Positions 41,839 through 53,061 of a stretch of 64,000 nucleotides of DNA are shown piece after piece. The translations under genes and the position numbers were made by a program. The DNA is from Eubacteriales bacterium. GTDB taxonomy: Bacteria; Bacillota; Clostridia; Oscillospirales; CAG-272. Location of the stretch: assembly GCA_045661325.1 (NCBI GenBank), contig JAZRFK010000039.1:4563-68562 (forward strand), read 5' to 3'. Within the stretch, counting starts at the first letter, position 1. Each line of letters starts with the position of its first letter. Below the pieces are notes generated by a model, which worked only from the letters and a program-made list of their open reading frames with translations, had not been told where the DNA came from and ran no database searches.

Positions 41839-43098
41839 ATGAAAAAACTGAATGAAAGGCTTTTTACCATTGCCGTTTACGTTTTGATAGTGATTTTGTT
41901 CACCGTTTTGTTCGGCATGATCTTCTTTAATCTCGGAACGATTTTCGGCTTCATAAAGGACGTAACGGTAAAGCTCAGCTCTGTTTTTTACGCCGTTATT
42001 ATCGCCTTAATTCTCTTGCCCGTGGTGCGAAAGCTGGAGCACTTTTTCAGCAAGATTTTTGACAAAAAGAAGCCGCACCCCCGCCTTTGCGCCGCCTTTG
42101 CCATTATCGTTTCTTATCTTTTTGCGCTCGTTCTTTTAGGCGTGTGCTTCGGCTCTATCATCCCTGCCTTGATTCAGGACATCAACTATCTGCGTGTGGC
42201 ATCAACGCCCCTTCTCCATTCCCTTCGGGAATTTTTGGAGAGCGGCAGTCAAAACGGCGGCATTTTGGGCTCCGTTCTGACGGCGCTCAGCGATTATATC
42301 AACGAAAATCTTTTGTCCATTCTGCAAAACTCCTCCGTCCTGCTTTCGCAGGCGGTAGACATTCTTTCGCGCGCGGCCTCTGAGGTTGCCAACCTGTTCC
42401 TCGGCGTGATGGCTTCTATTTACATTTTGGCCTGCCGCAGCATTATTTCGGGCATTTCCGCCAAGCTCGTTGTTGCCATCTTCTCGGAAAAAGCCGCGAT
42501 GCGTATCGTTATTTTCTTCAAGCGCTTGTATTCGGATTTCTGCTCCTTTGCGGGCGCAAGAATCCTCTCCTCCATTTGCTTTGCCACGGTGACCTTCCTT
42601 TTCTCCTGGCTTCTTGGCATTCCTATGCTTTCGGTTGTCACTCTGGTGCTTTTGCTATCCCACCTTATCCCTGTGGTCGGCTCTCTGGTAGGAGACGCCG
42701 TTACCGTGGTTCTGGTGTTGATTTTGCTTCCCCAGAAGGTATTTTTCTTCACGGCCGTTCTTCTGGGTCTTGAAATTCTCAACTCCTTCCTGCTTTTGCC
42801 CGGGCTTACCCCCAAGAAGCTGCGCCCCTCGTACGCTCTGGTGGCGGCGCTCGTGGTTGTTGCGGGCGGACTTTTCGGCGTTATCGGCGCTTTCCTGGCC
42901 GTTCCTGCTTACACCACGCTTCACGCCGAGCTGCACCCTCTCTTAACCCACCGTTTAGGCAAGAAGAATTTGCCCATTTCCACCGACGCCTATCGCGACT
43001 TCGACTTTGAAACGCTGGCACAGCGCGCCCAATCGGCCAAGTCGGAGGAGTTGCCCGACAAGGAGGACGGCGGTGACGAGGAGCGAGACGAGGCTTGA
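41839..43098 (+). CDS. AI-2E (PerM/UPF0118) family transporter, paralog 2
   Basis: Same topology, LSHLIPVVGSLVG motif, acidic C-terminal tail. Confidence 0.7.
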   Translation: MKKLNERLFTIAVYVLIVILFTVLFGMIFFNLGTIFGFIKDVTVKLSSVFYAVIIALILLPVVRKLEHFFSKIFDKKKPHPRLCAAFAIIVSYLFALVLLGVCFGSIIPALIQDINYLRVASTPLLHSLREFLESGSQNGGILGSVLTALSDYINENLLSILQNSSVLLSQAVDILSRAASEVANLFLGVMASIYILACRSIISGISAKLVVAIFSEKAAMRIVIFFKRLYSDFCSFAGARILSSICFATVTFLFSWLLGIPMLSVVTLVLLLSHLIPVVGSLVGDAVTVVLVLILLPQKVFFFTAVLLGLEILNSFLLLPGLTPKKLRPSYALVAALVVVAGGLFGVIGAFLAVPAYTTLHAELHPLLTHRLGKKNLPISTDAYRDFDFETLAQRAQSAKSEELPDKEDGGDEERDEA

Positions 43099-43123
43099 CG
43101 CGTCTTCTCCCAAGCATTTCTTT

Positions 43124-43167
43124 AAAATCCCCTTAACGCATTCGTGCGATAAGGGGATTTTCTTTTG
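43124..43167 (+). terminator. Terminator after AI-2E genes
   Basis: AATCCCCTTA / TAAGGGGATT hairpin with inner CGCA-TTCG-TGCG stem, followed by TTCTTTT. Confidence 0.8.
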
Positions 43168-43274
43168 CGCGCTTTGCAAAAAGCAGGCCAAGCACAGCGC
43201 TGAAAAGCGCCCGAATTACCCATAAACAAACCTAAAAAAACGTTTTTTTATTTTGCAATAAGCCGCTTCGCCCC

Positions 43275-43303
43275 TTGACTTTTCTTCTTTAATATGTTAA
43301 AAT
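43275..43303 (+). promoter_or_regulatory. Promoter of aryl-acid/IOR operon
   Basis: TTGACT (43275-43280), 17 nt, TAAAAT (43298-43303). Confidence 0.65.
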
Positions 43304-43386
43304 AACTGTATTATTTTTATCGCGCGCGTGCGTCTTGCGGCACATAAGGCGCGCACAGGCAAGGACATTTACCGAAAGGAGTCTTT

Positions 43387-45021
43387 ATGACTATCGTTGA
43401 TTTACTGACCCAAAACGCCATTCAATACCCGAGTGAAACGGCGCTTGTGGAGCTGAACCCGCAGTTTGAGCCCGGAAGCCGCATCACCTGGAAGGAATAT
43501 TCTTTGACGCAGCCGACGGTTGGCGAGCCCTTCCGCAGAGAAATCACTTGGCTTGATTTTGAGCAGCGCGCCAATCGCTTTGCCAATCTGCTTTTAACCC
43601 GAGGCTGCCGCCGCGGCGACAAGATTGCCATTCTCTTGATGAACTCGATTGAGTGGCTTCCCATTTATTTCGGTATTTTGAAGGCGGGCGCCATCGCCGT
43701 TCCGCTTAACTATCGCTATACCGCCGATGAAATTAAATTCTGCTTGACCAAGGCAGACTGCTCTATGCTGGTTTTCGGCCCTGAATTTATCGGGCGCTTG
43801 GAGGACATTTGCAGCGAGCTTCCCGCTGTCAAGCATATGTTTTACGTTGGCGAGGACTGCCCCTCCTTTGCAGACAGCTACGAGGATATGATTCCCTACT
43901 GCTCCTCCCGCGCACCGCACATTACTCTTTCGGAGGAGGATTACGCTGCCATTTACTTCTCCTCGGGCACCACGGGCTTTCCCAAGGCTATTTTGCACGC
44001 GCACCGCAGCCTGATTCACGCGGCACGCACCGAGCAGAACCATCACGCGCAAACGCACGAGGACGTTTTTCTTTGCATTCCGCCCCTGTATCACACGGGC
44101 GCCAAGATGCATTGGTTCGGCTCCTTGATGGTGGGCGGCAAGGCCGTTCTGCTCAAGGGCGCGCGCCCCGATTGGATTGTTCGCGCGGCCTCCGATGAGC
44201 ACTCCTCCATCGTCTGGCTTTTGGTGCCGTGGGCACAGGATATTCTGGACGCCATTGACAGAGGCGAGATTCGCCTTTCCGACTACGAGCTTGACGCCTG
44301 GCGCTTGATGCACATCGGCGCGCAACCCGTTCCTCCCTCCTTGATTAACCGCTGGTTAAAGATTTTCCCCCACCACAAGTACGACACCAACTACGGTCTT
44401 TCCGAGTCCATCGGCCCCGGATGCGTTCATCTGGGTATGGACAACGTGCATAAGGTTGGCGCCATCGGTAAGGCAGGCTACGGCTGGACGGTTTGTATTG
44501 CAGACGAAAACGGCCACCCCACCAAGCGCGGCGAGGTTGGCGAGCTTTGCGTCAAGGGCCCCGGTGTAATGCTTTGCTACTACAAGGACGAGAAGGCGAC
44601 CGACGAGGTTTTGAAGGGCGACTGGCTCTTTACGGGTGATATGGCAATGGAGGACGAGGACGGCTTTATCTACCTCGTTGACCGCAAAAAAGACGTTATC
44701 ATCACGGGCGGAGAAAACCTCTATCCCGTACAGATTGAGGACTTTATCCGCGCACACGACGCCGTCAAGGACGTTGCCGTTATCGGTCTTCCCGACGCGC
44801 GCTTGGGCGAGATTGCCGCCGCGATTATTGAGGTGAAGCCCGACAAGACGCTGACCGAGGAGGAGGTTAACGCCTTCTGCTCGCGCCTTCCCCGCTACAA
44901 GCGTCCGCGCGCTGTGATTTTCGCGGATATTCCGCGCAATCCCACGGGAAAAATCGAAAAGCCCAGGCTTCGCGAAATGTATTGCGCGGGCGGTCTGGTT
45001 GCCACGCAAATCAAGAACTGA
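43387..45021 (+). CDS. AMP-forming acyl-CoA ligase (class I adenylate-forming enzyme), substrate unknown
   Basis: YFSSGTTGFPK, TGDMAMEDEDGFIYLVDRKKD, ITGGENLYP, PRNPTGKIEK motifs. Confidence 0.8.
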   Translation: MTIVDLLTQNAIQYPSETALVELNPQFEPGSRITWKEYSLTQPTVGEPFRREITWLDFEQRANRFANLLLTRGCRRGDKIAILLMNSIEWLPIYFGILKAGAIAVPLNYRYTADEIKFCLTKADCSMLVFGPEFIGRLEDICSELPAVKHMFYVGEDCPSFADSYEDMIPYCSSRAPHITLSEEDYAAIYFSSGTTGFPKAILHAHRSLIHAARTEQNHHAQTHEDVFLCIPPLYHTGAKMHWFGSLMVGGKAVLLKGARPDWIVRAASDEHSSIVWLLVPWAQDILDAIDRGEIRLSDYELDAWRLMHIGAQPVPPSLINRWLKIFPHHKYDTNYGLSESIGPGCVHLGMDNVHKVGAIGKAGYGWTVCIADENGHPTKRGEVGELCVKGPGVMLCYYKDEKATDEVLKGDWLFTGDMAMEDEDGFIYLVDRKKDVIITGGENLYPVQIEDFIRAHDAVKDVAVIGLPDARLGEIAAAIIEVKPDKTLTEEEVNAFCSRLPRYKRPRAVIFADIPRNPTGKIEKPRLREMYCAGGLVATQIKN

Positions 45022-45103
45022 TTTGCCGTTTTTCCCTCTGTTTCACATCTGACTGCAAGCAATTTTCTGCTTCTGCATCCCTCTTTGAAAGGAATTCTTA
45101 CAT

Positions 45104-46849
45104 ATGAAAAAGCTTTTACTTGGAAACGCCGCCGTTGCGCGCGGCGCATACGAGGCGGGCGTCCGTTTCGTTTCCTCTTATCCCGGAACCCCCAGCACCG
45201 AAATCACCGAGGAAATGGCAAAATTTCCTGCTGAGGACGTTTTCGTTGAGTGGGCTCCCAACGAAAAGGTTGCCGCAGAGGCCGCTATCGGCGCCTCTAT
45301 TGGCGGTGGCCGCGCAATGAGCTGCTGCAAGCACGTTGGCCTCAACGTGATGGCTGACCCCGTTTTTACCGACAGCTATATCGGCGTTGGCGGCGGTCTT
45401 TGCTTCTGCGTGGCAGATGACCCCGGTATGCACTCCTCCCAGAACGAGCAGGACTCCGCCCATTACGCGAGACCTGCCAAGATTCCGATGCTTGAGCCTG
45501 CGGATTCGGCAGAATGCAAGGAGTTCACCAAGCTGGCATTCTCTCTTTCCGAGGAATTCGATACCCCTGTCTTTATCCGTTTGTCCACCCGCATTTCCCA
45601 CTCGCAGAGCATGGTTGAGCTTTGCGAGCGCGAGGAAGCGCCCTTGAAGGACTACGAAAAGAATATCCCCAAGCACGTGATGATGCCTGCTATGGCCATC
45701 AAGCGCCACGTGGTTGTGGAAGAAAGAACCGAGAAGCTGAAGGCCTTTGCCGAAGCCTCCCCTCTCAACACCGTTATCGACAACGGCAGTGAGATTGGCG
45801 TTATCACCGCAGGTATTTCTTATCAATACGCCGTAGAGGCCCTGGGTGAGCGCGTTAACTACTTGAAGCTCGGTATGGTTTATCCTCTGCCCGATGCACT
45901 TTTGAAGAGCTTTGCCGCCTCCTGCAAGAAGGTTTACGTGATTGAGGAGTTAGACCCCTTTATTGAGGAATATCTCCGTGCGCTTGGCGTTACGGTTATC
46001 GGCAAGGAAGCCTTTACCCTTCTGGGCGAGTACACCCCCTCTATGATTCGCGCCGCCGTTTTCGGCGAGGAAAAGTGCGCGCACGAGGTACCCGCAGAGG
46101 CACTTCCTGCCCGTCCTCCCGTTCTTTGCCCCGGCTGCCCGCACCGCGCGACCTTCTACGTTTTGAAGAAGCTCGGTCTGACGGTTTCCGGCGACATCGG
46201 CTGCTACACGCTTGGCGCCGTTGCTCCCTTGGCCTCGGTTGACACCACCATTTGTATGGGCGCCTCCATCAGCGCCGCGCACGGTATGGCAAAGGTCAGA
46301 GGCGCGGAATTTAACAAGAAGCTGGTTTCGGTTATCGGCGACTCGACCTTTATGCACTCGGGTATTACGGGTCTTTCGGACATCGTTTACAACAAGGGTG
46401 CGAACACCGTCATTATTCTCGACAACTCTATCACGGGTATGACCGGCCATCAGGACAACCCCACCACAGGCAAAACCATTCGCGGCGAGGCCACCAAGCA
46501 GGTTGATTTGATTCTGCTTTGCAAGGCACTCGGCATTGATAGCGTTTCCGTTGTTGACCCCTTTGACCTTGCCGCCTTTGAGAAGACGGTGAAGGAGGAG
46601 GTTGCCAAGGACGAGCCCTCCGTTATCATCGCACAGCGCCCCTGTGCGCTTCTGAAATCCGTGAAATACACGGGACATTGCGAAATCAACGACGATTGCC
46701 GCCGCTGCAAGCTCTGTATGAAGCTCGGCTGCCCTGCCATCAGCGTTGATGGGGACGGCAGAATGAAGATTGACACCTCGCTTTGCAACGGATGCGGTCT
46801 TTGCGTTTCCGTTTGCCCCTTCCACGCCATCGAAAAGAAAGAGGACTAA
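45104..46849 (+). CDS. iorA: Indolepyruvate:ferredoxin oxidoreductase alpha subunit
   Basis: CPGCPHRATFY, TPP region GDSTFMHSG, C-terminal CRRCKLCMKLGCP and CNGCGLCVSVCP clusters. Confidence 0.88.
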   Translation: MKKLLLGNAAVARGAYEAGVRFVSSYPGTPSTEITEEMAKFPAEDVFVEWAPNEKVAAEAAIGASIGGGRAMSCCKHVGLNVMADPVFTDSYIGVGGGLCFCVADDPGMHSSQNEQDSAHYARPAKIPMLEPADSAECKEFTKLAFSLSEEFDTPVFIRLSTRISHSQSMVELCEREEAPLKDYEKNIPKHVMMPAMAIKRHVVVEERTEKLKAFAEASPLNTVIDNGSEIGVITAGISYQYAVEALGERVNYLKLGMVYPLPDALLKSFAASCKKVYVIEELDPFIEEYLRALGVTVIGKEAFTLLGEYTPSMIRAAVFGEEKCAHEVPAEALPARPPVLCPGCPHRATFYVLKKLGLTVSGDIGCYTLGAVAPLASVDTTICMGASISAAHGMAKVRGAEFNKKLVSVIGDSTFMHSGITGLSDIVYNKGANTVIILDNSITGMTGHQDNPTTGKTIRGEATKQVDLILLCKALGIDSVSVVDPFDLAAFEKTVKEEVAKDEPSVIIAQRPCALLKSVKYTGHCEINDDCRRCKLCMKLGCPAISVDGDGRMKIDTSLCNGCGLCVSVCPFHAIEKKED

Positions 46850-46864
46850 GAAAGGATTTCTGCT

Positions 46865-47428
46865 ATGAACGTGATGATTGTTGGCGTTGGCGGTCAGGGA
46901 ACCCTGCTTGCCAGCCGCATTTTAGGAAATACCGTTATCGACCTTGGCTATGACGTGAAGGTCTCCGAGGTTCACGGAATGAGCCAAAGAGGCGGAAGCG
47001 TTTGTACCTACGTAAAATTTGGCGAAAAGGTCTATTCTCCCATCATTGACGCGGGAGAGGCAGACATCATTTTGGCCTTTGAGACGCTGGAGGCTTACCG
47101 CGCCCTTCCCTTCTTGAAAAAGGGCGGCAAAATGATTGTAAACAACCAGAGAATCAACCCTATGCCCGTCATTACGGGCGCTGCGACCTATCCCGAAAAC
47201 ATCTTGGAGAAGCTTTCCGCCGTTGCTGACGTTACCTCGCTTGACGCATTGACGCTGGCCGAAGAGGCAGGAAGCGGAAAGGCCGTTAACGTGGTGCTTC
47301 TCGGCGTTCTCGCCAAGAACACCGACATTCCCAAGGAGGCTTGGCTTCGCGCCGTAGAGGCAACCGTTCCTCCGAAGTTTTTAGACGTTAATCGCCGCGC
47401 ATTTACGCTCGGCTATGAGCTTGCATAA
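46865..47428 (+). CDS. iorB: Indolepyruvate:ferredoxin oxidoreductase beta subunit
   Basis: MIVGVGGQGTLLASRILG N-terminus, size, position after iorA. Confidence 0.85.
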   Translation: MNVMIVGVGGQGTLLASRILGNTVIDLGYDVKVSEVHGMSQRGGSVCTYVKFGEKVYSPIIDAGEADIILAFETLEAYRALPFLKKGGKMIVNNQRINPMPVITGAATYPENILEKLSAVADVTSLDALTLAEEAGSGKAVNVVLLGVLAKNTDIPKEAWLRAVEATVPPKFLDVNRRAFTLGYELA

Positions 47429-47467
47429 GGCGCGCCCGAAAGACACTCCTGTAAAAAGGTGATACAT

Positions 47468-48157
47468 ATGGAAAACGAAGCTATTAAAAACAACCGACAC
47501 GAGAAGCTGCTTATTCTGCTTTACATAGCCTTCTCCTTCTTCTTTCTCGGTGCCTTTATCGCACTCTCTATCTTGGTTAAGCCCTTCGCTGATTTTTCTG
47601 CCGCGCATCCGTATCTGATGGGCTTTTTCAAGTTTGCCTTTTTGGCAACAGCGGGCGAGCTGATTTCCTGCCGTATGGCAAGCGGAAAATGGCAAGCGCC
47701 CCCCTATATCATCGCGCGCTATATCATTTGGGGCGTTATCGGTGTTTGGATAACCTATATGATGAAGATGTTTGGCGCCGGCGTTGAGGGAATGATGCTT
47801 GGCGGCTTACTCCCCACGGTTTCGATTCCCTGGCTGCAAGCCTTGCTTCGCGCCTTCTTTATCAGCGCAACGATGAATATCTGCTTTGGCCCCACCTTTA
47901 TGGCCGTGCACAAATGCTCCGATACCTATCTTGCTCTTCGCGCCGATCGCAAGGGGCGCGTTACGCTTGCCGAGGTGATTAAGGCGGTTGATTTTCATCG
48001 CTTCGTTTCCTTTACCCTCTTTAAAACGATTCCTCTCTTTTGGATTCCCGCCCACACGATTACCTTCCTGCTTCCCGCACAATTCCAAGTGATGCTTGCG
48101 GCCTGCCTGTCGATAGCGCTGGGTATCATTTTGAATTTGCGTAGAAAGGATGCATAA
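47468..48157 (+). CDS. Polytopic membrane protein of unknown function inside the aryl-acid operon
   Basis: Several hydrophobic helices; ATG 47468 after AAAGGTG; C-terminal [18 protein letters not shown] segment weakly reminiscent of Mpv17/PMP22-type proteins (unverified). Confidence 0.5.
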
Positions 48158-48159
48158 AA

Positions 48160-49464
48160 ATGAGCGAAAAAAACATTGATTTTCTTCCCAGAGAAGAATT
48201 AGAGGCCTTGCAATTAAAGCGCCTTCAAGAAACCGTTGCCCGCTCCTACGAGAAAGTGGAGTGCTTCCGTCGCCGTATGGACGAGAAGGGTCTCACGCCC
48301 GCCGACGTAAAATCCTTGAAGGATCTTGCCAAGCTTCCCTTTTCCTACAAGCAGGATTTGCGCGACTATTACCCCTACGGCTTGTTTGCCGAGCCCATGG
48401 AAAACGTGATTCGCGTTCACGCCTCCTCCGGCACCACGGGCAAGCGCATCGTGGTTGGTTACACCCAGAATGACCTTGATATGTGGGCAGACACCATTGT
48501 CCGTATGCTGACAGGCCTTGGCGTTACCAAGGAGGACCGCATTCAAGTCAGCTTTGGCTACGGTCTTTTCACGGGCGGCTTCGGTCTGCACTACGGCGCA
48601 GAAAAGCTTGGCGCTTTGGTTATCCCGATGTCCTCGGGCAACACCCCCTTGCAGATTCAGACGATGATTGACTTCGGCGCTACCGTTCTTTGCTGCACCC
48701 CCTCTTACGCCATGTATTTGGCCGAGGAGGTACAGAAGATGGGCGTGAAGGATCAGCTGAAGCTTCGCATCGGTATTTTTGGCGCAGAGCCCTGGTCTGA
48801 AAATATGCGCGCAAAAATCGAAGAGTCCTTGGGCATCAAGGCTTACGATATTTACGGTCTTTCCGAGGTGCTTGGCCCCGGTGTTTCGGGAGAATGCACC
48901 GCACAGAAGGGCATGCACATTCGCGAGGACAACTTTATTGCCGAGATTATTGACCCTGACACCGAGGAGGTTTTGCCTTGGGGCAGCACGGGTGAGCTTG
49001 TTTTCACCTCCATCACCAAGGAAGCCTTCCCTGTTATCCGCTATCGCACCCGAGACATATGCCGCCTGATTCCCGAGCCCTGCCCCTGCGGAAGAACGCA
49101 CGTTCGTATGGACAAGCCCCAGGGCCGTACCGACGATATGATGATCATTCGCGGTGTTAACGTCTTCCCCTCCCAGATTGAAGAGGTGCTTTTGCGCGTT
49201 TGCGGTGACAAGATTACCCCCAACTATCAAATCGTGCTTGACCGCGTTAATCACAATGACACCTTCGACGTGAACGTGGAAATGAGCCCCTCCTTCTTCA
49301 CGGACGATATCAAGTCTATTGAAAAGCTTGAGCGCACCATCGTGGAGAGCCTGCGCTCTGCGCTTGGCATCGGGGCAAAGGTGCATCTGGTTAATCCGCA
49401 ATCCATCGTTCGCAGCGAGGGCAAGGCAAAGCGCGTTCTCGATTTGCGTAAGGGTAAAATTTAA
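48160..49464 (+). CDS. paaK: Phenylacetate--CoA ligase
   Basis: [41 protein letters not shown] and overall PaaK layout, 434 aa. Confidence 0.88.
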
Positions 49465-49491
49465 TTTGGCTTTTACGAAGGGAGATACAGT

Positions 49492-49923
49492 ATGCTTATC
49501 AAACAGCTTTCGGTATTTTTGGAAAACAAAACGGGATGTCTGCACGCGGCACTCAACACGCTTGCCGCACATAACGTGAACATCAGTGCTCTCTCCTTGG
49601 CAGACACCACCGATTTCGGTATTTTGCGCCTCATCGTTGACGAGCCCGAAACGGCCAAGACCGTGTTGGCCGAGATGGGCGTTGTCGTTCTTCTGAGCGA
49701 CGTTCTCGCCGTTGCGATGGACGACGTTCCCGGCGGCATGGCCGAGCTTCTGCACCAGATTGCCGCGGAGGGACTCAACATCGAATATATGTACGCCTGT
49801 GTTGGCCGCACCAGCGGAAAGGCGCTGACGGTGATGCGTCTTGATGACAACGAAAAGGGCGAGGCCTTGATTCAGCGCGGCAAGCACGGACAGGTCAATC
49901 CCGCCGATATTTATCGTATTTAA
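49492..49923 (+). CDS. ACT-domain protein
   Basis: MLIKQLSVFLENKTGCLHAALNTLAAHNVNISALSLADTTDFGILRLIV, tandem ACT-like halves. Confidence 0.75.
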   Translation: MLIKQLSVFLENKTGCLHAALNTLAAHNVNISALSLADTTDFGILRLIVDEPETAKTVLAEMGVVVLLSDVLAVAMDDVPGGMAELLHQIAAEGLNIEYMYACVGRTSGKALTVMRLDDNEKGEALIQRGKHGQVNPADIYRI

Positions 49924-49965
49924 TTGAGAAAAAGGGGATTTTCCCTTTCAGAAAAGGAACAGCAT

Positions 49966-51156
49966 ATGGAATTTTCAATTTCGAACAGAATGAAATCGAT
50001 GCGCGGCTCTGCCATTCGTGAAATCTTTAAATATGCCGCAGACCCCTCGGTTATTTCTTTGGCAGGCGGAAATCCTGCCCCTGAGCTTTTCCCCAACGAA
50101 GCCTTGGCAAAGATTGCCGAGCGCTTCTTGCGCGAGGAGCCCGTTCTTTCCCTGCAATACGGCATTACGGAGGGCTATATGCCCCTGCGCCAGTACGTCA
50201 AGGAACGCTTGGCAAGGGTTGAGGGCATTCACCGCGAGGGTGACGAGACCATCATCGTTTCGGGCGCCCAGCAGGGCATTGAGCTTTTGGCTAAAACCCT
50301 GCTCAACGAGGGCGATGTTGTTATCGTGGAGGAGCCGAGCTTTATCGGCGCCACCAACGCCTTCCGCTCCTACGGTGCCAAGCTGGTTGGCGTTCCTGTG
50401 GAAGAGGACGGCATGAACGTTGACGCCTTGGAGAAGGTTTTGGCGACCTATCCCGAAGCGAAGCTGATTTACACCATTCCCACCTTCCAGAACCCCACGG
50501 GTACCACGATGTCTCTTGAAAAGCGCAAACAGGTTTACGCGCTTGCCAAGAAGCACGGTGTGCCGATTTTGGAGGACAATCCCTACGGCGACCTTTGCTT
50601 TGATGGGCGCCGCTTCCCCACCATCAAGTCGATGGACACGGAGGGGCTGGTCATTTACAGCGGCTCCTTCTCTAAGATTTTGGCCCCCGGCATCCGCGTT
50701 GGCTTTTTGACGGGTGACGCCGCTTTGATTCAAAAAATCGTCGTTGCCAAGCAGATTTCCGACGTGCATACCCCGATGCTGACCCAGCTGATGTGTCACA
50801 CCTATCTGACCGAGAACGATTTGGAGGCAGACATTGCCAAGACTCGTTTGAATTACGCCCACAAATCCAAGACCATGATGGATGCTATGGAGACCTATTT
50901 CCCCAAGGATTTGCGCTTCATTCGTCCTTTGGGCGGTCTTTTCATCTGGTGCGATTTGGGTCACGGAGTTGACACCCTGGCGCTTTCCAAGGCCGCTATC
51001 GCAGAAAAGGTGGTTTACGTGCCCGGCAACACCTTTATGGTGGATATGGACACCGTTTGCTCCACCTTGCGCCTGAACTACTCTACCTCCTCTGACGAAA
51101 AAATCGAAGAGGGCATTCGCCGCTTGGGCAAGGTTTTTGCCGAGGCTTTGCGATAA
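49966..51156 (+). CDS. PLP-dependent class I/II aminotransferase (aromatic/2-aminoadipate type)
   Basis: MRGSAIREIF N-terminus, LAGGNPAPELFP, PLP-lysine motif SGSFSKILAPGIRVGF; ATG 49966 preferred over TTG 49924. Confidence 0.8.
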   Translation: MEFSISNRMKSMRGSAIREIFKYAADPSVISLAGGNPAPELFPNEALAKIAERFLREEPVLSLQYGITEGYMPLRQYVKERLARVEGIHREGDETIIVSGAQQGIELLAKTLLNEGDVVIVEEPSFIGATNAFRSYGAKLVGVPVEEDGMNVDALEKVLATYPEAKLIYTIPTFQNPTGTTMSLEKRKQVYALAKKHGVPILEDNPYGDLCFDGRRFPTIKSMDTEGLVIYSGSFSKILAPGIRVGFLTGDAALIQKIVVAKQISDVHTPMLTQLMCHTYLTENDLEADIAKTRLNYAHKSKTMMDAMETYFPKDLRFIRPLGGLFIWCDLGHGVDTLALSKAAIAEKVVYVPGNTFMVDMDTVCSTLRLNYSTSSDEKIEEGIRRLGKVFAEALR

Positions 51157-51176
51157 GCACCCATAAATGACACGAT

Positions 51177-51227
51177 AAAAGAGCAAGAGATAGAAGGATT
51201 TTTTCCTTTTACTCTTGCTCTTTTTTT
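51177..51227. terminator. Bidirectional terminator
   Basis: AGAGCAAGAG / CTCTTGCTCT outer stem with inner AAGGA/TCCTT stem, followed by T7. Confidence 0.75.
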
Positions 51228-53061
51228 ATGAATAGCGCGCAAAGGGGCGCTTTTTCCTATCGGCCCTTTGTCTTTTTCTCTTCTTTTTACTTTCACCGTC
51301 AAAGAGTGCCTCGGTGATTTCCTCGGTCAAGCGAAGGAGGCCCTCTTCCCCGCTTTCTCCGTCAACAAAGGCACATTCCCGCTTTTTGACAATGCGGTGA
51401 TTTTCCTCGTCATAATCCAACACACAAAAGGAGAGGTGCTTTCCCGTTTTTTTACAGTACATTTTATCCAAAAGCAAAAAGCCGTTATAAATTTTTTGAT
51501 TGCTTTTATCGGTTAAGGCATAATCGACATCGGCAAAGACCGTGACGCTTTCGCCCTTTTCCAAGCAAGAAAGGGCCTTTCTTAAACAGGAGATGCTTCG
51601 CATATCCTTGCCACGATATACGGCAATCATTTTCATGGATCGCAATAGGGGCGGCACAACGAGGGCGGCGAAAAAGGCGGCTACCGTACCGAAAATGCGG
51701 CGTAGGCGGCTTTCAGAATAGCGCGCGGTGAAGGTGTAATCCTTATACTGCTTAAAGCAGGTGGAAAAGCGGAAGAAGCAATCAAGCCCGAAAAAGTGGG
51801 TGTCAAAGGGCATAAAGGCCGCAAGGGTAACGGGGCCGTGCATATTGAGGTGACGCGAGACGTAAACGGTTGGCGCCTCGGGCGGAAAAAGGTTGGCCTT
51901 GTACTGCTTTAAAAAGGGGCGAACGAGAAAGCGCGCAACGCAAAAGAACGGCCCGTAGAACGCATATTTTTTGCTTTGCTTTGGCGCGAAAACCCATCTT
52001 TTCTGAATATGGTAGGAAAAAAAGGCGAGGGCAAGGTCGACAAGACCCTTGGCAAGCGACAGCCATAGCCCCGTTGGAATAAAGCGGCCAAGAAGAAGCG
52101 TAAGTCCGTAGGAAACGGAAAGCTGCACAGTCCAAAGAATATAATACCGCAAGAGCGATTTTTTCCCTTCGCCGCGAAAAGCCAAGCGGTTGCCGAGAAA
52201 ATTGACAACGGAGGAGGAAATTCTCGCCAATAGCGCGGCCCAAAGCAAGCAAAGCGCCTCCGGTATGCCCACAAAGACGAAGCGAGAGAAAAGATAAAAG
52301 AGGAAAACGTCCAAAAGGGCAGAAACAACGGAGGAAAGAAAATAGATTCCGAAGCTTGAAAAAAAGACGCCCAACACGTCCAAGGAATCCCGAAGCGGTC
52401 TGAAATGAGAGACCCTTCCCTCTCCTTCTCTTCTTTCGCGATAAACCGTTTCTATCTCCACCTGATGCAATAGGAAGCCCTTTTCGTGCAAATGCAGAAG
52501 CACGCGCGTTTCATAGGCAAACCGATTTCCCTCCACCTCTAAAAGATACGGCAAAAGAGCGTGCGAAAAGCCGCGCAGCCCCGTTTGCGTATCGGCAAGA
52601 GAGATGCCGCAGAAGCGTTCCAGTATTTTTATCATAGCGGTGTTGCCAAGGCGACTTCTTCGGGGAACGGACGCCCCCTTAAAATCGCGCACACCCAACA
52701 CCAAGGCGAAGGGGTGGGCCTTGACGGCGTTGAGCACGCGAAAGACATCCTTCACCCTATGCTGCCCATCACAGTCGGCAACGGCATAGAGCGTATTCTC
52801 GCCATTTTCCGCCAAGGAGAAGCGAAAGGCGCTTTTCAGCGCTGCGCCCTTTCCCTTGTTTTCGTTATGCGTCAAAACCGTTGTTCTCGGCAACGAGGAG
52901 ACGGCGGAAAAGACGGCGACGTATTCTTCACCACTTCCATCATCCACCACCAAAAGCGAGACCTCCTTTTTGGCAAGCAGCTCGCGCGCGTACGAAACGA
53001 AGGCCTTGGGCGGCTGATACGCAGGAATGATAATGACAACCTTTTGTTTTTCGCAATCCAT
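51226..53061 (-). CDS. Three-part fusion: family-2 glycosyltransferase + GtrA-like membrane domain + divergent PlsC-like acyltransferase domain
   Basis: N-terminus IIIPAYQPPKAF...VVDDGSGEEY (GT2); middle four helices with SSVVNFLGNRLAFRG (GtrA-like); C-terminal third YVSRHLNMHGPVT... resembles lysophospholipid acyltransferases only loosely. Confidence 0.65.
   Translation of the reverse strand: MDCEKQKVVIIIPAYQPPKAFVSYARELLAKKEVSLLVVDDGSGEEYVAVFSAVSSLPRTTVLTHNENKGKGAALKSAFRFSLAENGENTLYAVADCDGQHRVKDVFRVLNAVKAHPFALVLGVRDFKGASVPRRSRLGNTAMIKILERFCGISLADTQTGLRGFSHALLPYLLEVEGNRFAYETRVLLHLHEKGFLLHQVEIETVYRERREGEGRVSHFRPLRDSLDVLGVFFSSFGIYFLSSVVSALLDVFLFYLFSRFVFVGIPEALCLLWAALLARISSSVVNFLGNRLAFRGEGKKSLLRYYILWTVQLSVSYGLTLLLGRFIPTGLWLSLAKGLVDLALAFFSYHIQKRWVFAPKQSKKYAFYGPFFCVARFLVRPFLKQYKANLFPPEAPTVYVSRHLNMHGPVTLAAFMPFDTHFFGLDCFFRFSTCFKQYKDYTFTARYSESRLRRIFGTVAAFFAALVVPPLLRSMKMIAVYRGKDMRSISCLRKALSCLEKGESVTVFADVDYALTDKSNQKIYNGFLLLDKMYCKKTGKHLSFCVLDYDEENHRIVKKRECAFVDGESGEEGLLRLTEEITEALFDGESKKKRKRQRADRKKRPFARYS

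Follow-up and report, generated by a model that had tools for sequence, protein, structure and literature searches.

An operon joining two AMP-forming ligases, IorAB and an aminotransferase probably returns arylacetic acids to tyrosine and phenylalanine in gut Clostridia

A 64,000-nt window from contig JAZRFK010000039.1 of an Eubacteriales genome carries, on its plus strand at 43387-51156, seven genes that encode, in order, an AMP-forming acyl-CoA ligase, the two subunits (IorA and IorB) of an indolepyruvate/arylpyruvate:ferredoxin oxidoreductase (IOR), a membrane protein, a second ligase of the PaaK family, an ACT-domain pair and an aminotransferase, with 2 to 82 nt between neighbouring genes (Table 1; positions are those of the window). 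Two AMP-binding ligases, IorAB and a PF00155 aminotransferase are here encoded together, and the locus raises the question of whether they release arylacetates from aromatic amino acids or return arylacetates to them. Our answer is that the operon probably converts scavenged arylacetic acids (4-hydroxyphenylacetate, phenylacetate and perhaps indoleacetate) to tyrosine and phenylalanine, and perhaps to tryptophan. All of the evidence is genomic, and the pathway steps are inferred from family membership and gene order. An earlier interpretation made from the letters alone (the sequence-only reading) had described the gene string together with a promoter-like site and a terminator; these are borne out, all seven genes lying where it had placed them or close by.

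The evidence that bears most directly on direction comes from the leaders of sister operons. T-boxes switch genes on when the cognate tRNA is uncharged, and Rfam T-boxes (RF00230) were found in front of the operon at 15 loci (100-128 bits; gathering score 93), some immediately 5' of the ligase and others 5' of a symporter gene that precedes it. A search for the T-box core motif added approximately 10 further loci, giving approximately 25 in all. The specifier columns of the Rfam alignment read UAC (Tyr) in every case shown. The remaining T-box leaders have GAAUACA or GAAUUACN at the specifier position, and UAC is the only codon that the two forms share; from one locus (L119) no specifier could be extracted. 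Since every readable specifier is UAC, the orthologous operons are, on the sequence of their leaders, predicted to be switched on when tRNA-Tyr is uncharged, and induction by tyrosine starvation points to a tyrosine supply route rather than to fermentation. A literature search found no open-access paper linking T-boxes to IOR operons.

The content of the operon agrees with this direction. Oxidative arylpyruvate pathways end in a phosphotransacylase and a kinase or in ADP-forming ligases (PMC13285125, 2026). Among the seven operon proteins there is no phosphotransacylase, acyl kinase or ADP-forming ligase (PF01515, PF00871, PF13607), and no thioesterase. The assimilatory, reductive-carboxylation direction proposed in the sequence-only reading is thus supported both by the tyrosine T-boxes of orthologous operons and by the lack of an ATP-conserving exit enzyme; because T-boxes gate the orthologous operons, this support is independent of the original argument that AMP-forming activation implies biosynthesis, an argument already in print for the IOR of Bacteroides (PMC13285125). 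The earlier stress on phenylalanine and tryptophan does not survive, tyrosine being the product sensed at every readable specifier.

The copy in the window has no T-box of its own. A sensitive Rfam search of 42900-51400 returned neither a T-box nor any other Rfam element at E <= 1, and the leader is only approximately 83 nt long, against 230-280 nt for the T-box-bearing orthologous leaders. Eight T-boxes occur in the window's genome, none of them in front of the operon and none read as Tyr; the C11 leader was not readable. In a midpoint-rooted maximum-likelihood tree of the ligases, the window pairs with locus L002 (100% support), and the pair lies inside a seven-member clade (95% support) with the T-box-bearing loci L003/L004 and L092, T-box-bearing loci being spread over both halves of the tree. 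Because the window and L002 nest among T-box-bearing loci, loss is the simplest reading, and the T-box has probably been lost in the window's lineage. The claim that this operon is regulated differently, without a T-box, thus holds as to the absence, which is however probably a secondary loss, since the nearest sisters in the ligase tree carry one.

All six soluble proteins of the operon could be assigned to a family, and catalytic motifs are intact in all of the enzymes. IorA reaches 706.2 bits against TIGR03336 (cut-off 650.9), covering 1-576 of its 581 residues, with a thiamine pyrophosphate (TPP) motif GDS...N at 412 and the Cys clusters CRRCKLCMKLGCP and CNGCGLCVSVCP at the C-terminus; it is the only true IOR in the genome. 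IorB, whose gene begins 15 nt after iorA, scores 284.8 bits against NF005325 (cut-off 230). For the aminotransferase, which has the pyridoxal-phosphate (PLP) lysine motif SFSK, the nearest structures are the Pyrococcus KAT-II homologue 1X0M/3AOV (PH0207; E = 7e-92), Thermus LysN 2EGY (E = 3e-89) and the Thermococcus multiple-substrate aminotransferase MsAT 1WST (E = 2e-87). This aromatic or multi-substrate KAT-II/Aro8/LysN group counts in favour of salvage. Its NCBIfam matches include MocR-type regulators, an identity that we reject as the protein has no helix-turn-helix domain. The start at ATG 49966 is more likely than the TTG at 49924, because the former is preceded by an AAAGGAA ribosome-binding site.

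The two ligases are of different classes. The first, lig544, belongs to the FadD/4CL class; its best NCBIfam match, NF004837, gives 401 bits and stays under the cut-off of 476, and the nearest solved structures are FadD13, FadD5 and feruloyl-CoA synthetase. With its P-loop SSGTTGFPK and the A10 lysine motif intact, it is a candidate arylacetate-CoA ligase, possibly for 4-hydroxyphenylacetate. The second resembles Burkholderia PaaK1 (2Y27, E = 5.8e-134) and the Bacteroides thetaiotaomicron enzyme 4R1L (E = 7.3e-120) and has both the P-loop SSGTTGKR and the C-terminal lysine (SEGKAK). Directly 3' of paaK, in 45 of 46 non-redundant cases and at gaps of 18-158 nt, lies the gene for the ACT pair, whether or not the operon has a T-box. 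This protein matches PF19571 with 101.3 bits (cut-off 23.5) across 1-138 of its 143 residues, and PDB entry 2F06 with E = 2.5e-24. It is a candidate amino-acid-binding regulatory subunit and constant partner of PaaK, as its position suggests. A literature search on ACT domains with PaaK yielded nothing relevant. The proposal that the ACT protein serves as a sensor in place of the T-box fails, because T-box-bearing operons have the protein as well and because its gene is tied to paaK.

We asked how far the arrangement is kept elsewhere by collecting relatives of the 229-aa membrane protein and of lig544 from one-genome-per-species collections and mapping the seven proteins onto the loci. The ligase adjoins iorAB at a minimum of 59 non-redundant loci of Clostridia, and because the same order recurs there the gene string is no chance arrangement. 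In full the order runs ligase, iorA, iorB, membrane protein, paaK and ACT, with or without the aminotransferase, at enzyme identities of 70-96%; its carriers are uncultured gut and rumen Clostridia labelled Acutalibacteraceae, Christensenellaceae, Oscillospiraceae or 'Eubacteriales'. The most constant part is the core of ligase, iorA and iorB (49 of 80 ligase loci). Three loci labelled as Agathobacter sp. (L003), Roseburia intestinalis (L004) and Roseburia sp. (L005) would have provided cultured carriers, but they are metagenome-assembled genomes (MAGs) of 1.6-1.8 Mb, their operon shares 80% identity with the one in an unclassified 'Eubacteriales' genome, and the genus labels are probably wrong. 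Cultured Ruminococcus flavefaciens (L145, L147) and R. albus (L169) do have a lig544 orthologue, 70% identical. We rejected clustering of ligase and IOR in these species, where the orthologue has only unrelated neighbours (a pyrimidine-nucleoside phosphorylase-like gene, a Spo0A_C-like gene and GH3) and one or two true IOR loci are elsewhere. They are nonetheless usable model strains for the ligase.

The membrane protein is the one operon product for which no Pfam or NCBIfam family was found at E <= 0.001, and no related solved structure was found, even by profile. Against PF04117 (Mpv17/PMP22) it scores 14.3 bits (cut-off 27; E = 0.041), through the C-terminal motif only. The same family is matched by all 20 diverse relatives inspected (best E = 3.3e-5), which come from Clostridia, Bacteroidota, Thermotogota, a cyanobacterium and an archaeon, so that the protein reads as a consistent remote relative of Mpv17/PMP22 and not as a certified member. 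Its homologues, more than 2200 and all unnamed, are widespread outside IOR contexts, and for this reason the family is not specific to arylacetates. In sister operons without the membrane protein, a sodium:solute symporter (PF00474, SSF) often lies immediately 5' of the ligase. Of the 44 loci whose flanking sequence sufficed, the membrane protein alone was present in 15, the symporter alone in 17, neither in 12 and both in none; these counts are not corrected for phylogeny and start from a set of loci picked by way of the membrane protein. An orthologue of the symporter is missing from the window's genome, where the best match is 28% identical. The swap with a symporter and the Mpv17/PMP22 signal, taken together, make an uptake component or channel for the operon's substrates, the arylacetates, our best guess for the 229-aa protein. 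In an uncultured Thermoplasmatales archaeon (L071), the gene directly 3' of a paaK homologue (47% identity) encodes a homologue of the 229-aa protein and not an ACT pair, which is an independent link of the Mpv17-like family to PaaK outside Bacteria.

The genome of the window (1.9 Mb, 98% complete) has chorismate synthase, prephenate dehydratase and prephenate dehydrogenase on one contig. In 18 operon-carrying sister genomes, prephenate dehydrogenase and prephenate dehydratase were each found in all 18 and chorismate synthase in 17. Tyrosine auxotrophy is thereby rejected as the reason for salvage. Because the de novo genes for phenylalanine and tyrosine are kept, salvage is an economy route for these amino acids and not the replacement of a lost pathway.

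We therefore picture the pathway in the following way. Arylacetates (4-hydroxyphenylacetate, phenylacetate and possibly indole-3-acetate) would enter the cell aided by the 229-aa protein, or in sister operons by the Na+/solute symporter. Both lig544 and the PaaK-type ligase would make the arylacetyl-CoA, splitting ATP to AMP and pyrophosphate, and IorAB would carboxylate it reductively to the arylpyruvate with reduced ferredoxin and CO2. The reduced ferredoxin would presumably come from sugar fermentation through another 2-oxoacid:ferredoxin oxidoreductase (OFOR), for which the genome has a 1224-aa open reading frame of the size of a pyruvate:ferredoxin oxidoreductase (PFOR). The KAT-II/Aro8-type aminotransferase would then convert the arylpyruvate to the amino acid. 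More conjecturally, the ACT-pair protein might slow PaaK or IOR on binding the end product. The copy in the window, with its plain promoter and 83-nt leader, is probably expressed without tRNA gating, and its control may be post-translational.

Several points weigh against this account. The direction cannot be read from gene content alone, because the IOR of B. thetaiotaomicron, which lies beside PaaK, is reported to contribute to the formation of phenylacetate from phenylalanine (Zhu 2023, as cited in PMC13285125). The window's own copy is without a T-box, so that the regulatory argument is borrowed from its relatives, and in the GAAUUACN-type T-boxes the base 3' of the codon is sometimes C or U instead of the usual purine. 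On the side of the enzymes, lig544 has no characterised close relative and its substrate is a prediction. The second ligase is a member of the PaaK family and not a certified PaaK equivalog; its predicted substrates are phenylacetate, 4-hydroxyphenylacetate or indoleacetate, and family membership does not settle its preference because its TIGR02155 score of 539.8 bits is under the equivalog cut-off of 646.3. Finally, the de novo route to phenylalanine and tyrosine, kept in this genome and the 18 sisters, means that salvage is not essential.

Run oxidatively, the aminotransferase and IorAB would turn phenylalanine, tyrosine and tryptophan into arylacetyl-CoA while reducing ferredoxin; the cell would give off arylacetates, with the ligases only recapturing or buffering the acids. 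IOR is reversible and, in the account cited in PMC13285125, was first described as an enzyme of peptide fermentation (Mai and Adams 1994); the Bacteroides observation points the same way, as does the lack of a starvation switch on the window's copy. We consider such a fermentative role quite improbable, however, since the operon has two AMP-forming ligases with neither an ATP-conserving exit (Pta-like enzyme, kinase or ADP-forming ligase) nor a thioesterase, and since it would be senseless to degrade scarce tyrosine in response to uncharged tRNA-Tyr, by which the orthologous operons are predicted to be induced. Moreover, the carrier genomes are small (1.2-2.1 Mb), which we take to suggest saccharolytic gut bacteria rather than amino-acid fermenters. 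A different possibility keeps the assimilatory direction but makes tryptophan from indole-3-acetate the main product of this lineage, the de novo tryptophan pathway being missing. Indeed TrpA, TrpC (indole-glycerol-phosphate synthase) and anthranilate synthase (trpE) were not found in the 98%-complete genome of the window, TrpA is found in 0 of the 18 sisters and a lone TrpB1 in 10, with none in the other 8; IOR enzymes accept indolepyruvate, and the PaaK-type ligase of Bacteroides accepts indoleacetate (PMC13285125). Set against this, every readable T-box before the operon is UAC and none is UGG, the genome's own UGG T-box precedes a lone trpB, which suggests indole salvage as the regulated route to tryptophan, and incompleteness of MAGs could add to the apparent gene absences. 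We regard tryptophan as the main product as unlikely; that it is an additional product, made from indoleacetate beside tyrosine and phenylalanine, is a perhaps, because no T-box before the operon reads UGG.

PaaK-type ligases also begin the anaerobic degradation of phenylacetate through phenylacetyl-CoA in denitrifying Thauera and Aromatoleum, and the operon could in principle serve arylacetate catabolism for carbon and energy in this manner. Here, though, the ligases are paired with IOR and an aminotransferase and not with a phenylacetyl-CoA oxidoreductase or benzoyl-CoA reductase (as judged on the operon proteins only, with no search of the rest of the genome for benzoyl-CoA genes), the genome is only 1.9 Mb, and T-box control in the orthologues points to amino-acid supply, all of which make catabolism extremely improbable. 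Returning to assimilation into tyrosine and phenylalanine as the preferred function, one may join its less certain parts into a single picture of a self-contained salvage unit under post-translational control, in which the ACT pair is a dedicated allosteric subunit through which bound Tyr, Phe or Trp turns off PaaK or IOR, on the model of the ACT small subunit of acetolactate synthase; the 229-aa protein is a channel for arylacetates, which would make it the first of the Mpv17/PMP22 type in bacteria to have its cargo assigned; the same enzymes supply tryptophan from indole-3-acetate in a lineage without trpA, trpC and trpE; and small-genome gut Clostridia depend on aromatic acids cross-fed by amino-acid fermenters. 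Built on analogy, this combination is speculative, and that all of it should apply is rather doubtful.

Table 1. Features of the operon in the window, and the sister loci with an Rfam T-box.
Feature	Position or loci	Strand	Basis and remarks
Sigma-70-type promoter-like site	43275..43303	+	TTGACT, 17-nt spacer with TG (extended), TAAAAT; 10/12 positions match; consensus match only
5' leader, ~83 nt, without T-box	43304..43386	+	GC-rich CGCGCGCGTGCG element; ribosome-binding site AAAGGAG
lig544, 544-aa AMP-forming acyl-CoA ligase, FadD/4CL class, first gene	43387..45021	+	PF00501 + PF13193
Weak hairpin (8-bp AT-rich stem) + T-run	45006..45035	+	overlaps lig544 stop codon; 82-nt gap before iorA
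IorA, indolepyruvate/arylpyruvate:ferredoxin oxidoreductase alpha	45104..46849	+	TIGR03336; TPP domain and two [4Fe-4S] motifs
IorB, IOR beta subunit	46865..47428	+	PF01558; NF005325
229-aa polytopic membrane protein	47468..48157	+	remote Mpv17/PMP22-like
PaaK-family arylacetate-CoA ligase (AMP-forming)	48160..49464	+	PF14535, E = 2.6e-29
143-aa ACT-domain pair	49492..49923	+	PF19571 (ACT_8), E = 5e-29
Class I PLP aminotransferase, KAT-II/Aro8/LysN/multiple-substrate group	49966..51156	+	PF00155, E = 8.9e-39; frame open from 49924
Intrinsic terminator	51179..51227	+	12-bp stem (AAAGAGCAAGAG / CTCTTGCTCTTT) + T-run; common to convergent gene 51226-53061
T-box immediately 5' of ligase	L003, L004, L014, L019, L021, L027, L092, L093, L094, L158		Rfam
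T-box 5' of symporter gene that precedes ligase	L112, L115, L119, L131, L151		Rfam

The promoter-like pattern occurs at 6 sites in the region against 5.1 expected and is thus no rarer than chance. What makes this site credible is its placement, in a 288-nt gap downstream of the hairpin closing the upstream gene, and the fact that the 96%-identical locus L002 keeps it. The 83-nt leader does not fold better than shuffled sequences (z = -0.29), and no leader peptide rich in Tyr, Phe or Trp was seen when it was read by eye; other known RNA leaders are ruled out for this operon by the fold test and the Rfam search. The leaders without a T-box in the window (43318-43360), L002 and L011 have in common a CGCGCGCG(T)G-rich element just 3' of the -10 box, present in L002 as a 21-nt direct repeat, which could be an operator or a remnant. 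The hairpin at the end of lig544 may act as a partial terminator, by which expression of the first ligase would be uncoupled from that of the later genes; it is not conserved, the gap between ligase and iorA being only approximately 30 nt in orthologues such as L003. Rfam near-matches to hairpin 3'UTR models at 51175-51230 reflect the terminator hairpin only. Directly upstream of the operon, on the same strand, are two tandem AI-2E family transporter genes (PF01594; 40527-43098) that end at a hairpin at approximately 43131-43167. They are probably unrelated to it, because only in the near-identical L002 do they again stand next to the operon.

Two other T-box loci of the same genome were noted. 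At G000:C98:3601-5128 the lone trpB (TIGR00263, 513 bits) behind its T-box with a UGG (Trp) specifier looks like indole-to-tryptophan salvage under tRNA-Trp control. At G000:C27:6189-11880 (L173:190-5880) the T-box, its specifier probably CUC (Leu), lies before a LeuA-like gene; the genes after that one encode an 819-aa protein in which a xylose-isomerase-like TIM barrel is fused to an AMP-forming ligase, then an Amidohydro_2 protein and a CAT-like acyltransferase. This cluster may be a further tRNA-gated module for acid activation; an Amidohydro_2 gene also occurs in some of the sister aromatic operons (L162).

Gut and rumen contain abundant arylacetates, among them phenylacetate, 4-hydroxyphenylacetate and indoleacetate, and these are precursors of compounds that matter to the host, such as phenylacetylglutamine and p-cresol. 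If our interpretation is right, a widespread bacterial sink that returns them to amino acids would change how arylacetate pools are modelled, and the operon would supply genes for a rumen pathway known since 1965 only from labelling. Parts of it are uncharacterised and worth study in their own right, namely the FadD/4CL-class ligase, which is the most conserved partner of IOR, the obligate pair of PaaK and ACT, and the Mpv17/PMP22-like protein that alternates with a Na+/solute symporter. The specific value of the operon in the window is that of a natural variant without a T-box.

Reductive carboxylation of indoleacetate to tryptophan is known from rumen bacteria. Such bacteria likewise form phenylalanine from phenylacetate by carboxylation (Allison 1965, as cited in PMC7356843), and the predicted chemistry and the habitat, gut and rumen Clostridia, are the same as for the operon described here. 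R. flavefaciens and R. albus, which belong to the rumen ruminococci first studied for the phenylacetate reaction, carry the 70% identical lig544 orthologues and IOR. The rumen work was labelling physiology with no genes assigned, and Ruminococcus, unlike the operon, keeps ligase and IOR apart. In the methanogen Methanococcus maripaludis, the use of aryl acids through IOR is a genetically established second route to the aromatic amino acids (Porat et al. 2004, J Bacteriol 186:4940, as cited in PMC4162585). An anabolic role is also ascribed to the IOR and other 2-oxoacid oxidoreductases of Methanobacterium thermoautotrophicum (Tersteegen 1997, as cited in PMC13285125). In these methanogens too an IorAB-type enzyme is proposed to run reductively, from arylacetate through arylacetyl-CoA and arylpyruvate to the amino acid, beside a de novo shikimate route. 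The operon differs in being bacterial, in holding the whole route in one unit with two different AMP-forming ligases, a membrane protein, an ACT pair and an aminotransferase, in having relatives that are tRNA-gated, and in being known from its genes alone.

The closest cluster is the iorAB-paaK arrangement of Bacteroides (structures 4R1L/4RVN), where IOR likewise adjoins a PaaK-type AMP-forming arylacetate ligase. That AMP-forming enzyme has been confirmed as an arylacetate-CoA ligase, and it has been argued that the Bacteroides IOR may be biosynthetic (PMC13285125), whereas the in vivo evidence so far, to the extent that it is cited there (Zhu 2023), is for the oxidative direction only. To this arrangement the operon adds the FadD/4CL-class ligase as first gene, the Mpv17-like membrane protein, the ACT partner and the aminotransferase. 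The oxidative Stickland branch shares the intermediates (arylpyruvate, arylacetyl-CoA, arylacetate) and the OFOR superfamily with the operon. Its aromatic form consists of the OFOR HpdDEFG with the phosphate 4-hydroxyphenylacetyltransferase (HPA-transferase) HpdJ and the HPA kinase HpdK, and Clostridioides difficile has IOR with a kinase or an ADP-forming ligase (PMC13285125). These clusters end in ATP-conserving enzymes (PF01515 with PF00871, or PF13607); the operon has none and, as its families predict, spends ATP to AMP in two ligases. Tyrosine-specific T-box leaders (RF00230), complete and with a UAC specifier, are present on the orthologous operons L003, L004, L021 and L151, the copy in the window being without one. 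A familiar leader of this kind is that of tyrS in Bacillus subtilis. The chemistry of the pathway is thus already known and nothing about it is categorically new; the operon is its fully clustered bacterial variant.

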